A stretch of 62,397 nucleotides of DNA, counting the filler, from Diploschistes diacapsis (Eukaryota): assembly GCA_023645945.1 (NCBI GenBank). It is 6 parts of 6 records of this genome, joined end to end, with 100 filler letters (N's around TTAATTAATTAA, not from the genome) between each part and the next. Parts side by side here need not be neighbours in the genome. Positions count along the whole stretch, not along the records: positions 19,930 to 26,440 come from JALAIB010001379.1; 5 more parts are not named here. One strand, given 5' to 3'. Below the pieces are notes generated by a model. The model searched no databases. It saw only the letters and a program-made list of their open reading frames with translations, and had not been told where the DNA came from. Shown in pieces: positions 6,567-55,888 of this stretch. The position numbers and the translations under genes are program-made. The first letter of the stretch is position 1. Every line of letters begins with the position of its first letter.

Positions 6567-6666
6567 NNNNNNNNNNNNNNNNNNNNNNNNNNNNNNNNNN
6601 NNNNNNNNNNTTAATTAATTAANNNNNNNNNNNNNNNNNNNNNNNNNNNNNNNNNNNNNNNNNNNN
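6567..6666. other. Artificial contig spacer (N44-TTAATTAATTAA-N44)
   Basis: Six-frame stop linker flanked by Ns, identical at five positions. Confidence 0.97.
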
Positions 6667-13209: not shown

Positions 13210-13309
13210 NNNNNNNNNNNNNNNNNNNNNNNNNNNNNNNNNNNNNNNNNNNNTTAATTAATTAANNNNNNNNNNNNNNNNNNNNNNNNNNNNNNNNNNN
13301 NNNNNNNNN
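13210..13309. other. Artificial contig spacer
   Basis: N44-TTAATTAATTAA-N44. Confidence 0.97.
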
Positions 13310-19829: not shown

Positions 19830-19929
19830 NNNNNNNNNNNNNNNNNNNNNNNNNNNNNNNNNNNNNNNNNNNNTTAATTAATTAANNNNNNNNNNNNNNN
19901 NNNNNNNNNNNNNNNNNNNNNNNNNNNNN
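19830..19929. other. Artificial contig spacer
   Basis: N44-TTAATTAATTAA-N44. Confidence 0.97.
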
Positions 19930-20421
19930 GTTTACTCCAATACCTCATTTATGATGCCTTTTTTACCCCCCACCCGTATTTGAGCTTCACTTATCCCGCT
20001 TCTCCCATAGCCAAAGGAACAGAAGCCAGCTTGACCTTGAGAGCCTCCCTCAAGGTGCTAAGTAACTACTATTTCTACACCAACTCACCACCTTGGCTCA
20101 ACTTAGCATTCTACACAAAGCCACGTTCACTCCCAAATACCAGACATCTATATTGTCACTCTCTAAAGAGCATACTGCGAGTAGCCTACGTGCTGGAACA
20201 AAGACTTTCTTACTGCCGCTTTGCACTTCGAAAGTTCTGAGACCCCAGTACACCCGAGCCAGCAAGAGAACCCCATTGGGGAGGGACTTGGAACAGTTCC
20301 CCATCCTTTACTACTTCCTGCAGTCTGTGCATCTTTGCTCCAGAGAGCCGTAAGCTACAACTCCAACTTCGAGAGGAGACTCCGCGCTCTGTAGGTCGTC
20401 GGTACACCGGGCTCGGACAAG

Positions 20422-21468
20422 ATGAGTAGCCCAAAGAGAAGGATCGAGACAGATGTAAGCAAAGAAGAGACTGGCCGATGAACATGGAAGAAGGAAAAGT
20501 GAACGCTGACCCCCACTCTCTCTGCGTTACGCAGGTTATGAAGTATGGTTCAAGCACTTCGGTCGTATTGCAAGTGTATACTAACCTGAAAAACAGGATG
20601 TGCGTCCATCTAAGCAAAGGCCTGAAGCAGGTATAAAAGGAACAGCCACTGATGGGCATTATCTAGGTTGATGAGCGACTACGAAGTGACGCTGGTCAAC
20701 GATAACAGTGAGTGGCAGCTTTGGCATCAGAAGGGAGCTCCTTGCTAACGCTGGCACAGTGTAGGCACTTGGCTTTCCGGATAAAAGCTCCAACTGTACG
20801 GTACGAGCAACTAATAACTCCCAGGCAAGAGTTCTACGTCCGCTTCAAAGGTCCAGAAGAGAGTATGTCTTACCGGTTTCCACATTCGAGCCCAGCTTAC
20901 AACTTCAAGCCCCCTTCGCCGGCGGTCTCTGGAAGATCCACGTCGAGCTCCCCGATACATACCCCTACAAGAGCCCTAGCATCGGCTTCGTGAACCGCAT
21001 CTTCCACCCCAATATCGACGAGCTGTAGGTCTACCGCTCCACCACCCCTTATCCACTCGGCCCATTCGAAATCCAGGCTGATGGGTGCCACCAGGTCCGG
21101 CTCCGTCTGCCTCGACGTGATAAATCAAACCTGGTCGCCCATGTTCGACATGATCAACATCTTCGAGGTCTTCCTCCCACAACTCCTGCGCTACCCGAAC
21201 CCCACGGACCCCTTGAACGGAGAAGCGGCTGCGCTGTTGATGAGGGACCAGAAGAGCTATGACGTGAAGGTCAAGGGTGAACTTGATACCCCTAGCATCC
21301 AGCGGTAGGCAGAGAAAGTGCTGATTATAGACAGAATATGTTACCAGGTACGCCAACAAGGACGCCGCAGATGAGGCGGGCGAAGATAGCGAGTCGGACG
21401 ATGAGATGAGCTCCGTGGGAAGCTTCGATTCGGAGGACGACGATCCGGCGGGGATCATGGAAGTTTGA
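20422..21468 (+). CDS. UBC8: E2 ubiquitin-conjugating enzyme Ubc8/UBE2H, 9 exons including microexons
   Basis: Spliced [79 protein letters not shown], acidic tail. Confidence 0.92.
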
Positions 21469-22905
21469 TCTCCATGGACGGATATGATTACGATGAACGC
21501 TTTTATCAGCTTGCACGGTTTTCGGAGTTGTTCCCGACGCACAGCAGGCAGCTTTCCGACTCGGTTTCAATTTGTTTCCATGGTTCTTGCCAGGTATAGC
21601 TTTCTGGGTCTTCTATCTCGACAGCTGATGTGTGTCGTCCGTCGCATCTCCCCTTTACTCTGTCTGCGGCGTGATGTTGAGCTGGAGCGCGGTGCCTATC
21701 TAGAATGGACACGGGCAATAGGCATTTGATATAGGCGGCTTCTCGAAGCCCGATACGGGTAAATTGAATATCATTGATTAAGGAACACTCCTGGAGCTGT
21801 ATGCATCTTGTCCGCATGACCGCTAAACCGGCCGTTCTATTCACTTACCTGAGGCCTCACCTTGGAAATTTCAACAAGGCATTCGTGTACCCCACTGAAC
21901 TCACGTTTGTAAAGAAGAGCTCCCTTCAGAAGCTATTCAAACTTACAGAGGCCCCCTCTAACAACTGCCCGATCTTGCCTTTTCCCATGGCCGCAATCTA
22001 AGCAATTGCTCTATAATGCCTGTGCATTTGTGCCGTAGCTTTCACTTACCTCCAGCCCCCCTGACTTCTTTTGGCATTTGGAGGACTTCCACTTGCCGTG
22101 TGTCTGTTCAGAGGAATATCAGCAGCCAAAATCACCCGATGATGATGATAACCGTTCATTCGGAGCAAGGACCGTTCCAAGCACTAAGCTTGAGCAAAGG
22201 GGTGAATTCGAGAAAGGGCGCTTTTTTCGGAAGCCTGTACATACAGTGTTTTGCCGGTGGTTGTTTGTCAACCTGGGTGTCTGTCTGTCCCCTTTGGCAC
22301 GGGCGTTATGCCAGTTCCTGTTAGCCACTTTGAGTACATTGTAGGTAGGTCTCTTTGTGAATTCTCTGACTGTGGCCGAGATTGCCTGCTGTGGTCTGCG
22401 AGTTAATTCCACGGCTATGTCCCTGGCGATGGAGATGGAAATATGCATGCCAAAGTGCATACTTCTCAGAAGCGCTTTCTGTGTCTTTCTTCACCCGTGT
22501 CCATTCTAAAATCCGATCTGAACATTAATTCAAAGGATCTTGAGCTTCGTTATCCCGAATAGCCTCCCCTATAACCCATTTGAAATAAGAGTAGCGATAA
22601 AATGACCAGCATAAATTCAGCGCACGGTATGAGCTTCAAAAGTAAGTGAAATCTCCTGCTTTTATATTCTCATGTTGGTGTCACCACACTGAGGCGACAT
22701 GGTTTCCCTCCTTGAGCCTACACCTTCTCTAGACTCGGGCCCCATATTGGTGTCGTAAGGTTTCAGAGTCAAGCAGCAGCTGCTAATCTCTTCGTTCTTC
22801 GTAGGCTTGAGCGACTCCGGAGCGTCAAGGACGGGAAGTAGGAATCTCTCTGCTCCGGGCACGTCGGTGCTTGGTGGTGCCGCCATCAGCCAGCAATATA
22901 CCACC

Positions 22906-24156
22906 ATGTCTATCACCGGCGTCAACTCCGAAGGAACCTCAACTCTGGGGGTTCCTCTGCCCACTTCAACCGCCGCGATGACCCCATCGGCCCACCCAGC
23001 AGTCAAGCGTGACGGCCGACTCGTGGTCATCGCGGCGGCCATCTGCTTCATCGTGGCCACCGTGTTCCTTGTCACGCGTCTTCTCGGCCGCCTCATCCTC
23101 CGACGTCAAAATCCCAACGCGAACACTCGATTCGGCGCCGACGACGCGCTCATAATCCTCGGATACCTCTTCTTCGTCTCGTACTGCGTTAGCTTCGTGG
23201 TAACAGTACTCATCTTGGAGCACGGCTATGAAGTCGGTCATGTGACAAACGAAGCGCGGTTCCCGCTCCAGAAGCTCATCTTTACCCTCCAGCTCCTCTT
23301 CGCTCTGTCTTTTGGTTTTACGAAGATGAGCGTCGCCATGATGCTGATCTTTCGCATCTTCAGCCACACCATGTTGAGAATATACAAAAGGTGGGCCATC
23401 GGCATCAGCGTGGTGTGTGGCCTTTGGTTCGTCGGCGCTTTCGTCGAGCCCTTTGTCCTCTGTACCTCAATTTCCGCCTACTTCAATCTTATAGTTACCG
23501 AGTGCGGAAATGTTGAAGAAGCTCTGACAGTCGTCAACGCGCTCGACATCGCCACGGACTTTGCTCTTTTAGCTGAGCCCCTGGTCCAGTTGTACAATTT
23601 GAAAAATATCTCTCGAGCCCGTAGGATTAAGGCGACCATAGTTCTTTCGACGGGGTTTCTCGCCGTGATGGTTGCCATAACCCGGTTCGTCGTCATTGTG
23701 CAGACTAACTACGCCGACCCCCCGGAATCATGGCTTCTCTTCCTCATGTCAATGATCCAGACCACTCTGGGTATTTGTGTCGCTTGCATCCCGAGCAGCA
23801 GACCTTTCTTCGAGGGGCTCCTGGCCTTTATCAAACGCCGATGCTGCACTAAACGTCGTCCTGCCTCTGTCTCTGCCCCTGCCCCTGCTTCGGGCTCTGC
23901 TCCGATGCCTGCTCCTGTTCCAGCCATCGCCCCCACTGTCGCAGCTGCTCCCCACCGCCAACCAAGGCCGACTGCATTCACAACGGGACTAGGCTCTCAA
24001 CCAGGGAGGACTTTAAGCATCAACGATCCGCTCAACGATAGTGACGTCATCGAGCTGCAGAAAATGCTCCGGTCGTCAGCCGTCAACATGGACAACTCAT
24101 CGACTGTAACTCTAGGTAGAGTTGGTCCTGCGGCAGAAGCAAGAGAGACAGTTTAG
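22906..24156 (+). CDS. PTH11-like integral membrane receptor (fungal rhodopsin domain, no CFEM), intronless
   Basis: About 7 hydrophobic segments with FGADD, FTKMSV, DIATDF, ITRF and GICVACIP motifs; Pro/Ala-rich tail. Confidence 0.85.
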   Translation: MSITGVNSEGTSTLGVPLPTSTAAMTPSAHPAVKRDGRLVVIAAAICFIVATVFLVTRLLGRLILRRQNPNANTRFGADDALIILGYLFFVSYCVSFVVTVLILEHGYEVGHVTNEARFPLQKLIFTLQLLFALSFGFTKMSVAMMLIFRIFSHTMLRIYKRWAIGISVVCGLWFVGAFVEPFVLCTSISAYFNLIVTECGNVEEALTVVNALDIATDFALLAEPLVQLYNLKNISRARRIKATIVLSTGFLAVMVAITRFVVIVQTNYADPPESWLLFLMSMIQTTLGICVACIPSSRPFFEGLLAFIKRRCCTKRRPASVSAPAPASGSAPMPAPVPAIAPTVAAAPHRQPRPTAFTTGLGSQPGRTLSINDPLNDSDVIELQKMLRSSAVNMDNSSTVTLGRVGPAAEARETV

Positions 24157-26440: not shown

Positions 26441-26540
26441 NNNNNNNNNNNNNNNNNNNNNNNNNNNNNNNNNNNNNNNNNNNNTTAATTAATTAANNNN
26501 NNNNNNNNNNNNNNNNNNNNNNNNNNNNNNNNNNNNNNNN
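26441..26540. other. Artificial contig spacer
   Basis: N44-TTAATTAATTAA-N44. Confidence 0.97.
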
Positions 26541-29372: not shown

Positions 29373-32300
29373 TCAAGGCTCAGACTCGATATTGATTCCC
29401 AGCTTCTCCTTCAACAGCTTGACTATTCCTTCGTGCTGATTCATAGTTGCGTGATCTAGCGGCGTAAAACCGTCGTTATCCTTGGAATCTGCTGCCACGT
29501 CATCCCGATCTAATAGCAGCTTTACTACCGCCGTTTGCCCGTATATAGTTGCGAATGATAGGGGTGTCCGACCCTCTTTGTCCTGGCAATCAGCTTCTAC
29601 ATCCTCCCGAGCTAATAGCAGCTTCATCGCTTCTTCCCCGCGCCGAGCTGCGAATGATAGGGGTGTCCGACCCTCTTTGTCCTGGCAATCAGCTTCTACA
29701 TCGTCCCGATCTAATAGCAGCTCTACCACCGCCTCGCGCCCAGACTCGGCTGCCCATAATAGAGGTGTTCGACCATTTTCATCCTGGGAATCTGCCATCA
29801 CATCATCCCGATCTAGTAGCAGCTTTACCACTGCTAAATGCCCATTCCCAGCTGCCCACGATAGGGGTGTTTGACCATTTTTATCCCAGGAAGCTGCCAT
29901 CACATCATCCCGATCTAGTAGCAGCTTTACCACTGCTAAATGCCCATTCCTAACTGCCCACGATAGGGGTGTTCGACCATTTTTATCCCGGGAATCTGCC
30001 ATCACATCATCCCGATCTAGTAGCAGCTTTACCACTGCTAAATGCCCATGCTCAGCTGCCCACGATAGGGGTGTTTGATCATATTCATCCTGGGAATCTG
30101 CCATCACATCATCCCGATCTAGTAGCAGCTTTACCACTGCCGAATGCCCTTTTGCAGCTGCCCACGATAGGGGTGTTCGCCAATGTTCATCCCGAGAATC
30201 TGCTATCACATCATCCCGATCTAGTAGCAGCTTTACCACTGCTAAATGTCCATTCTCAGCTGCCCACGATAGGGTTGTTCGCCAATTTTCATCCCGGGAA
30301 TCTGCTATCACATCATCTCGATCTAGTAGCAGCTTTACTACTGCCGAATGCCCTTTTGCAGCTGCCCACAACAGCGGCGTGCGACCATCTCCGTCTTCAG
30401 GGTTCACCACTGGTTCCGCTTCTAGACATTGCTTTGCAAGACTTGCCAAACCAAAATATGCGGCAAGGTGCATACCAGTGAAGCCGACTGGAGCATAGAC
30501 TAGTTGACGATGAGGAAAAAGTTCTAGCATTAATCTCTGACTGGTGCAAGAAACTCTCCTCTTATCCAATAGGAAGGTCAAAGCCGCGTCGCCAATTGCA
30601 TCTTCCGCTCGAGACGCATGAAGACCCCAATTTGAAGCTGCATATTGAAGTAAACAATGGCTATCTAGTCGAGCTTCGCATTCTTCTTTTGAAAGGCTTT
30701 CATCACTTTCAAACACATCAAATGAGAGATACGTGAGACAAATTTTCGCAATCTGCCTATGAGCACGAGGAAACCATTTGTGCTTCGAACCCCTAAAATA
30801 CTCTTCAACCGTGAAATGTACCAGGCGTATCGTTTCGCTTTCAGGATCGATTGTGACCAGTCCAGCCGAAACCGACACGATGAGTGCTTCCTCTGGTATC
30901 GCTTCTTCGTCCAATTCAGGGTCGCCAAGTTGGGTAGCCAACGCCTCCTTTAGTTCGTCTAATGTTAGAGGTCGGAACGCATTCGATATCCAAGCCAAAG
31001 CAGACATTGCAAGCTCGCTATGCTCCCGGACTTGACCCTGGATACGGCTCATTGCTTCATCATAAGTCTCGTTCAACCTGGTTGGCAGGGAGTCTACAGC
31101 CTTCCGAATGTTACGGATACTTGTTTGACACCCAAGTCGGTCCAAGTGCAGACGTGGTAGTAAGAACCTAGAAAGGTAATCAGCAAGGTTTGAGCCCAAT
31201 CTGGCTTCTCGAGGCATGACTGACATTCCTTGGGCCTTTTCGATTAATCCTTCGACAATCGTATTGGCAAGCTCGGCATCCTCTTGTATTTTGTTGGCAA
31301 AACTAAACTGGGAGGGATTCGCAATTCGCGAACGTATGTATGACTCGATATCCACGTCTGCAGCACGGATGTCAAGACGACGGGATCCCGCTAATTGTTC
31401 TCGGATGACATGATTTTCTCGTGACGTGAAAAATAGCGTGTACCCTTGGGAGGCGCTCTGGTGCTTCTGTAATTTCAGAAGTTCCTGCAGTAGAGGAAGT
31501 TGTAACGCATCTTCCTCGTGCTCGTTCGTGAAATGCTCATCCAAAGCATCTATGAGAATGAAAGATCTCCGGAACGATTTTGGAAAGGACGAAAGTAAGC
31601 TTAGATACTCCGCAAGTGATAATGAGCTTTGACCGTGGCTGTGTGCAGAGTAGAGATTGATGACTTCCTCCGGCATATCTTTCTGCTGCATGACTATCTG
31701 TTTCACTAGGCTTGAGATCAATCTGACGGTTGTCTGATTCGTGCGATCCTTGTAGTCACAATATGCAAAGGATATGGATACATCCTCTTTGACAAACATC
31801 TGTTGGAGGCTTTCGATAACAATCGACCTGTATGCTATCCATTAATCATGCTTGTGACTGAGGAAATACAGTGTGCAAGAGCAGACGTACGTCATGACAG
31901 ACTTTCCTGCTCCGGCTGTCGGTATCGTCAGTCTAAACTGTCGAACAAACATTCGTGTACTTACGGATGCCCGGACACCATAGCGTTGAGGGGGACTCAT
32001 CATGACCATTTCGCCATGCTTTGAAAGCATCTTCATCCAACAGCCACCGTCCTGTACCAGGATGCCGCTTAGAGAGGATGTCCCTTTGCTTCTCGTCGAA
32101 ATTCAAGTTCGAGAGCCATGTTAGGATCTTCTGGTTCTGTTCTAGGTCATGCCATTCTTTTTGTTCCTGCCTCGCTCGCTTTATCTCTTTATGGTTTATC
32201 ACCCCCAGGGTTATGGTATCTATGGATACCATATTGTTGAAAATCTCGCATTGGTGACGAAGTTTGTCTACAGAACTCTGTGCGCGTTTATTCAAGAAAG

Positions 32301-55788: not shown

Positions 55789-55888
55789 NNNNNNNNNNNN
55801 NNNNNNNNNNNNNNNNNNNNNNNNNNNNNNNNTTAATTAATTAANNNNNNNNNNNNNNNNNNNNNNNNNNNNNNNNNNNNNNNNNNNN
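55789..55888. other. Artificial contig spacer
   Basis: N44-TTAATTAATTAA-N44. Confidence 0.97.

Follow-up and report, generated by a model that had tools for sequence, protein, structure and literature searches.

What joins exon 4 to the rest of the coding sequence in a gene of Diploschistes diacapsis in which excision of the next 117 nucleotides as a single intron leaves the reading frame off by one? The gene lies on the + strand at 20422–21468 of a stretch of 62,397 nucleotides (the whole of the DNA analysed here, referred to as the window, along which all positions are counted). The original prediction had proposed that the 117 nucleotides (20708–20824) consist of an intron (20708–20759), a single coding base (T at 20760) and a second intron (20761–20824), and that the A before, the T between and the G after the two introns are spliced together into a Met codon. 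The sequence is exactly as had been claimed, and translation confirmed that removal of 20708–20824 in one piece shifts the frame, a stop following about 43 codons on. In our view T 20760 very probably forms a one-nucleotide exon, used constitutively, that completes a Met codon of a UBC8/UBE2H-type E2 gene in this filamentous ascomycete.

The gene and the single base at 20760

Our model of the gene, obtained by translation, has nine exons, which when joined amount to 555 nucleotides, are in frame and open throughout, and encode a protein of 184 amino acids that includes LVNDNMQEFYVRF; the residues NDNMQEFYV are those read across the joints between exons 4, 5 and 6. All eight introns are short (47–80 nucleotides) and bounded by GT and AG, with a branch-like motif near the 3' end (Table 1). 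The frame would also be kept if the three-nucleotide exon 3 were skipped; an intron-free contig from a relative (L017, described below) retains that exon. The translation contains the letters that in E2 enzymes make up the HPN motif and the catalytic Cys (Table 1).

Table 1. Exons and introns of the UBC8/UBE2H-type gene, in window coordinates
Feature	Position	Strand	Description
Exon 1	20422–20454	+	ATG start, 11 residues; donor GTAAGC follows; from model translation
Intron 1	20455–20534	+	80 nt, GTAAGC..CAG
Exon 2	20535–20542	+	8 nt; from model translation
Intron 2	20543–20596	+	54 nt, GTATGG..TACTAAC..CAG
Exon 3	20597–20599	+	3 nt, GAT; from model translation
Intron 3	20600–20666	+	67 nt, GTGCGT..CACTGAT..TAG
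Exon 4	20667–20707	+	41 nt, ends GAT AAC A; last A is base 1 of the Met codon
Intron 4 (intron A)	20708–20759	+	52 nt, GTGAGT, branch GCTAAC at 20744–20749, CAG
Exon 5	20760–20760	+	Single T, base 2 of the Met codon
Intron 5 (intron B)	20761–20824	+	64 nt, GTAGGC, branch CTAAT at 20811–20815, CAG
Exon 6	20825–20862	+	38 nt; first G is base 3 of the Met codon, then CAA GAG
Intron 6	20863–20909	+	47 nt; joint of 20862 to 20910 present in run X1
Exon 7	20910–21024	+	UQ_con core, HPN motif
Intron 7	21025–21094	+	70 nt; joint of 21024 to 21095 present in run X1
Exon 8	21095–21276	+	Catalytic Cys in SGSVCLDV
Intron 8	21277–21334	+	58 nt
Exon 9	21335–21468	+	Acidic C-terminal tail, TGA stop

The identity of the gene rests on two comparisons. 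Exon 8 matched the Pfam family UQ_con (PF00179) with 52.1 bits and exon 7 with 46.8 bits (cut-off, 27). A full-length close relative in the protein database, P0013, is 97% identical to the window over exon 8, and among PDB structures it was most similar to 8pmq_E ("E2-24 kDa," 1.3e-71), which we take to be yeast Ubc8, and to the UBE2H structures 8pjn (1.8e-66) and 2z5d (8e-65); the RAD6 and UBC13 classes of E2 followed far behind, at about 1e-27. Because of the UQ_con matches and this ranking, the gene is, as judged by similarity, an orthologue of UBC8/UBE2H. UBC8/UBE2H is the E2 of the GID/CTLH ubiquitin ligase.

Within the 117 nucleotides T 20760 is the only base that stands between an AG and a GT, and the introns on its two sides are both complete (GTGAGT..GCTAAC..CAG, then T, then GTAGGC..CTAAT..CAG). 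At 52 and 64 nucleotides they are of the same size as the gene's six remaining introns (47–80 nucleotides), whereas a single intron of 117 nucleotides would be the longest. With A 20707 and G 20825 the T yields ATG: it joins an exon end in phase 1 to an exon start in phase 2, and thereby restores a conserved Met and keeps the protein open. Because the bases adjoining both outer borders are G, removal of any one canonical intron could not supply the T that separates A from G.

Related loci, transcripts and public gene models

A collection of metagenome contigs was queried with exon 8, which returned 586 stretches that matched the pattern, of which 387 were confirmed as relatives; the best 80 (L001–L080) were kept. 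An attempt to assign taxa to the 80 loci by tblastn with 36 named proteins gave nearly equal scores for different classes and was set aside as unreliable. Six of the 80 (L040, L048, L050, L051, L065 and L066) stop short of the site, leaving 74 informative loci. The complete layout (A/GT..AG/T/GT..AG/G, with slashes at the exon-intron borders) was present in 52 of the 74, including four (L068, L072, L075 and L076) in which the next codon is for Ser rather than Gln; the other 48 were parsed separately. One more locus, L026, is partial: it begins inside intron A and shows AG/T/GT and the second intron. An uninterrupted ATG was found in 20 of the 74 informative loci from this best-80 set, and all 20 keep the Met. 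Six of the 20 are intron-free open reading frames; the other 14 retain other introns of the gene and are genomic lineages that do not have the two introns at this site.

To count lineages rather than loci, the 53 intervening sequences (those of the 52 loci and of the window) were clustered at 70% identity, giving 30 clusters, the window's included. Between clusters the intervening sequences are essentially unalignable (median identity 59%, maximum 68%), and the first intron varies from 46 to 79 nucleotides and the second from 50 to 95. YAG/T/GT is nonetheless invariant in all 30 clusters drawn from the best 80 of the 387 relatives. Every cluster has a YTRAY branch motif 8–27 nucleotides from the 3' end of intron A, and position +5 of the donor is G in 30 of 30 for intron A and in 29 of 30 for intron B. 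When the intervening sequences of the 30 lineages were shuffled base by base, a usable AGTGT arose in 3.4% of the shuffles, as against 30 of 30 real sequences. The check for conservation of AG-T-GT that accompanied the original prediction was thus positive in every lineage. The one-base-exon layout is not a product of chance. Since the lineages share a common ancestry, their agreement is the conservation of five bases amid a background that has drifted rather than 30 independent recurrences.

We also considered whether intron B has an unusual donor relative to intron A, and rejected this as too weak after comparing three donor positions over the 30 clusters. A purine at +3 was found in 20 of 30 against 25 of 30 (p = 0.23) and a T at +6 in 15 of 30 against 22 of 30 (p = 0.11). 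A C at +6 was more common in intron B (12 of 30 against 4 of 30), with an uncorrected p of 0.039 that may be noise.

One of the 74 informative loci, L058 (positions 2100–2300 of that contig), has the first intron alone (A/intron/TG). Among the best 80 of the 387 relatives its nearest neighbors are L063 and L067, both of which have the T exon. Besides the second intron, L058 is without introns 1 and 2, so that exons 1–3 are fused, and the TG has been kept. From its sequence this locus looks like a case of precise loss of the second intron. The opposite arrangement, with an intron only between AT and G, was seen in none of the 74 informative loci from the best 80 of the 387.

The exons that precede the site are themselves unusually small, and the arrangement of an 8-nucleotide exon followed by a 3-nucleotide exon was found in 26 related loci in addition to the window (again among the best 80 of the 387). 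Variants of it, such as the fusion of both into 11 nucleotides, were found in a further 26 loci, in some of which, as judged by eye, the 3-nucleotide exon has other letters (ATT or GCT), and in 16 loci the stretch is uninterrupted.

How the site is read in RNA can be approached through contigs that have no introns. L017, of 1,199 nucleotides, is intron-free and has a complete, uninterrupted open reading frame with both untranslated regions, and the nine-exon layout of the window is found again in a genomic contig, L037. When L037 was spliced according to the model, with its exons of 8, 3, 41 and 1 nucleotides included, it aligned with L017 in one gapless block in which 1,183 of 1,197 positions (98.8%) were identical; the 8- and 3-nucleotide exons are both contained in L017. 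We infer an RNA origin for L017 from the absence of all eight introns, an intron-less DNA copy matching the untranslated regions so closely being far less likely, and regard it as cDNA-like evidence from a near relative. On that understanding of L017, the comparison of the two contigs shows that the T is used in the mature transcript of the relative. Five more short contigs (L004, L033, L059, L078 and L079) are likewise intron-free, with complete open reading frames and Met at the site, and six database proteins from short contigs that are probably transcripts (P0013, P0044, P0067, P0071, P0093 and P0104) read NDNMQEF.

A single sequencing run, X1, was found that bears on the window gene. It is labelled "RNA? 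(probably DNA)," accounts for 18% of sampled words, is without cover over 20300–20656 of the gene, and its contigs were placed at 85% likeness. In one X1 contig 20707 and 20825 are separated by a single letter, a T (depth 3.94; the shorter side of the joint has 38 letters), and another has AAC AT directly before 20825. Because of the 85% likeness at which they were placed, the contig with the T joint may be from another organism, possibly one that simply does not have these introns, and we count the joint as weak support for the presence of the T in the mRNA of the window gene.

Public gene models tell how the site is commonly handled by prediction. Among the best 120 database proteins found with exon 8 (P0001–P0120), 16 read NDNMQEF, 18 have the site bridged by other letters, 20 have lost the downstream exon and 23 the upstream exon, and 43 are without either flank; 61 of the 120 are thus visibly altered or cut at the site. 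Ser-X, Arg or Lys at the site, or read-through at an intron end, are the usual workarounds. Four named models, from Hortaea (P0080), Salinomyces (P0033), Diplocarpon (P0103) and Kuettlingeria (P0045), read NDNMY, as would result from excision of the first intron followed by translation from the T into a GTAYG donor. From protein models alone, this is indirect evidence for the same layout in named Dothideomycetes, Leotiomycetes and Lecanoromycetes. A practical consequence is that UBC8 is mis-annotated in a large share of the public genomes of filamentous ascomycetes.

Alternative readings and a proposed route of splicing

Two models with a single intron keep the frame, and both have been chosen by gene finders in public proteins. 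An intron of 113 nucleotides that starts at an alternative donor, GTGGCA at position 20712, and shares the acceptor that ends at 20824 leaves the protein in frame and open, and would give NDNSEQEFYV, with Ser-Glu in place of Met; P0114 (NDNSKQEF) and P0096 (NDNSTQEF) contain the equivalent solution. The GT on which this donor depends, however, is no more than the last two bases (+5 and +6) of GTGAGT, a strong donor, and 8 of the 30 lineages do not have it, their +6 base being C, A or G. Moreover, GTGGCA has no G at +5, a base present in all 30 intron A donors, and Ser-X never appears in the intron-free contigs or transcript-like proteins, which have Met at that place. We therefore regard the Ser-Glu reading as very improbable. 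An intron of 122 nucleotides (20708–20829), ending at a cryptic AAG acceptor within exon 6, is also permitted by the sequence, as the A of exon 4 followed by AG TTC is in frame. It would give NDNKFYV, a protein two residues shorter, and P0025, P0051, P0100 and P0101 indeed read NDNKF[YF]V. This reading would delete the Met-Gln-Glu that is kept in the 20 uninterrupted loci and in the transcript-like contigs; it needs Gln to be encoded by CAA and is impossible where the codon is CAG, as in L037; the X1 joint arrives at 20825 and not at 20830; and the NDNKF form is absent from every intron-free contig. We hold it to be extremely unlikely. That the gene is broken, or that the assembly has lost a base, with AG-T-GT lying by coincidence inside one intron, could be argued from the canonical ends of 20708–20824 and from the masked runs of N near the gene. 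Against such an accident, the remainder of the UBC8 gene is intact, and the layout recurs in 52 complete loci and one partial locus and in all 30 diverged lineages, compared with 3.4% of shuffles, which leaves it with next to no probability.

A further proposal, made in the original prediction, would add to the one-base exon rather than replace it, namely that the T is sometimes skipped by splicing of the donor at 20708 to the acceptor at 20824, and that the ensuing frameshift would expose the mRNA to nonsense-mediated decay (NMD) and allow UBC8 output to be tuned by splicing. Skipping would bring in the stop about 43 codons downstream, in exon 7, with two further exon junctions beyond it, and PMC4674806 reports skipping in 33% of transcripts for a one-base exon created artificially in potato invertase. 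The skipped joint was not seen, the sole X1 joint across the site having the T, and the 30 lineages display no conserved feature beyond ordinary splice signals. Nor is regulation needed to account for the long conservation of the layout: ATG is the only codon for Met, and the coding requirement fixes the T. We judge regulated skipping to be quite unlikely.

How might so small an exon be spliced? Recognition of short introns by intron definition is established in fission yeast and is assumed for filamentous fungi. Under such a mechanism each of the introns beside T 20760, having a complete set of donor, branch point and acceptor, would be recognised across itself, and an exon would have no minimum length. 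The upstream intron would be cut after the AG that ends at 20759 and the downstream intron before the GT that begins at 20761, so that A 20707, T 20760 and G 20825 would come together as the Met codon of the mature mRNA. In the window the branch motif of intron A lies about 11 nucleotides from the donor of intron B, and the -3 and -2 bases of that donor are the acceptor AG of intron A. It is hard to see how complexes assembled on the acceptor of intron A and on the donor of intron B could coexist, and because of this closeness and this sharing of the AG we propose that the two introns are most likely removed sequentially rather than simultaneously. The product would be the same whichever went first. 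Removal of intron A changes the exon-side context of the intron B donor from A-G-T to C-A-T, which is slightly nearer to the usual consensus, a weak hint that the upstream intron is removed first. Both intron definition and sequential removal are what we infer from the layout, the ordered two-step splicing of the original prediction being plausible on steric grounds.

Relation to known one-base exons, and other features of the window

One-base exons have been reported in APC11 of Arabidopsis (Guo and Liu 2015, PMC4674806), in CYP621A of Fusarium (Nelson and Syed 2026, PMC12940212) and in Coprinopsis (PMC12230235). The original prediction had held that such exons are very rarely documented and are missed by gene predictors. 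Predictors do commonly go wrong on this gene, only 16 of the best 120 proteins being correct at the site; as regards fungi, such exons are now documented in PMC12940212 and PMC12230235.

The closest parallel is CYP621A, which its authors present, in 2026, as the first case in a fungal gene, and which is documented in 20 Fusarium orthologues with support from SRA reads (PMC12940212). As in UBC8, the exon belongs to a nuclear fungal gene, joins a phase-1 end to a phase-2 start, consists of a single base between AG and GT within what seems to be one over-long intron, is missed by predictors, and was demonstrated from an intron-free relative and transcript reads. The two differ in that the base in CYP621A is G (AGGGT) and the gene a rarely expressed P450 of one genus, whereas in UBC8 it is T (AGTGT) in a housekeeping E2; furthermore, the UBC8 exon occurs in no fewer than 30 lineages, between which the introns cannot otherwise be aligned, and is chained with exons of 8 and 3 nucleotides. 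The exon of APC11 resembles it in being constitutive and required for the frame, and the authors of that study argue for intron definition and for one-by-one (recursive) removal, citing a 9-nucleotide potato exon whose downstream intron is removed first (PMC4674806). APC11 is, however, a plant gene that was tested with reporter constructs, and the evidence for UBC8 is comparative, together with one cDNA-like contig of a relative. For Coprinopsis cinerea, a long-read annotation lists 13 one-base exons in 13 genes (PMC12230235); these too are in a fungus, but a basidiomycete, and the sections consulted neither name the genes nor describe conservation across species.

Two other arrangements invite comparison. 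In stwintrons (PMC5587772), as in UBC8, two short fungal introns are in contact and are very probably removed in two consecutive reactions. The likeness to stwintrons drawn by the original prediction does not extend further: in a stwintron the internal intron splits the donor, branch or acceptor of the external one, a signal that comes into being only once the internal intron has been excised, and nothing is retained, whereas here each intron leaves the splice signals of its neighbor uninterrupted, the signals of both are intact before splicing, and one base is kept. A stwintron is thereby excluded by definition. Recursive splice sites (ratchet points; PMC4674806) share with UBC8 an acceptor AG beside a donor GT and the successive use of the two, but they leave no base behind and occur in very long introns, as compared with one coding base and introns of about 50–65 nucleotides. 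A recursive site in the strict sense, with an exon of zero length, was rejected because a T separates AG from GT in all 30 lineages; the UBC8 element nevertheless probably works like one.

A search of freely accessible articles, main text only, found no report of a one-base exon in UBC8. One-base exons as such have already been published; the UBC8 case is a new and unusually deeply conserved one. It resides in a constitutively needed E2 gene, in diverged lineages and next to exons of 3 and 8 nucleotides, and would be a convenient natural substrate for tests, useful for asking how an intron-defining spliceosome copes with an acceptor and a donor that overlap. One can go further and imagine that the exon is ancient, older than the divergence of several filamentous ascomycete classes, that no fungal housekeeping gene has a denser chain of ultra-short exons than the one it forms with the 3- and 8-nucleotide exons, that the introns are removed in a fixed order, that skipping of the T leads to NMD, and that the supply of E2 to GID/CTLH is thereby coupled to the kinetics of splicing; taken as a whole, this picture is in our estimation unlikely.

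Finally, we note some other features of the window. Pairs of 44-N runs, 12 bases apart, are found at 6567–6666, 13210–13309, 19830–19929, 26441–26540 and 55789–55888. Four of the five pairs recur at intervals of about 6.6 kb, and they look like masking rather than natural sequence; one pair lies about 500 nucleotides upstream of the UBC8 start codon. An open frame of 465 amino acids on the + strand (22759–24156) matched only its own product, which has PF20684 on record, at E ≤ 1e-10. On the minus strand, at 29373–31841, is an open frame of 822 amino acids whose best named match (57% identical) belongs to Alectoria sarmentosa, a lichen fungus, which hints at an origin of the window in a lichen-forming or related ascomycete; the relatives of this frame contain NACHT-associated and ankyrin-repeat Pfam families, in the manner of NLR-like proteins.
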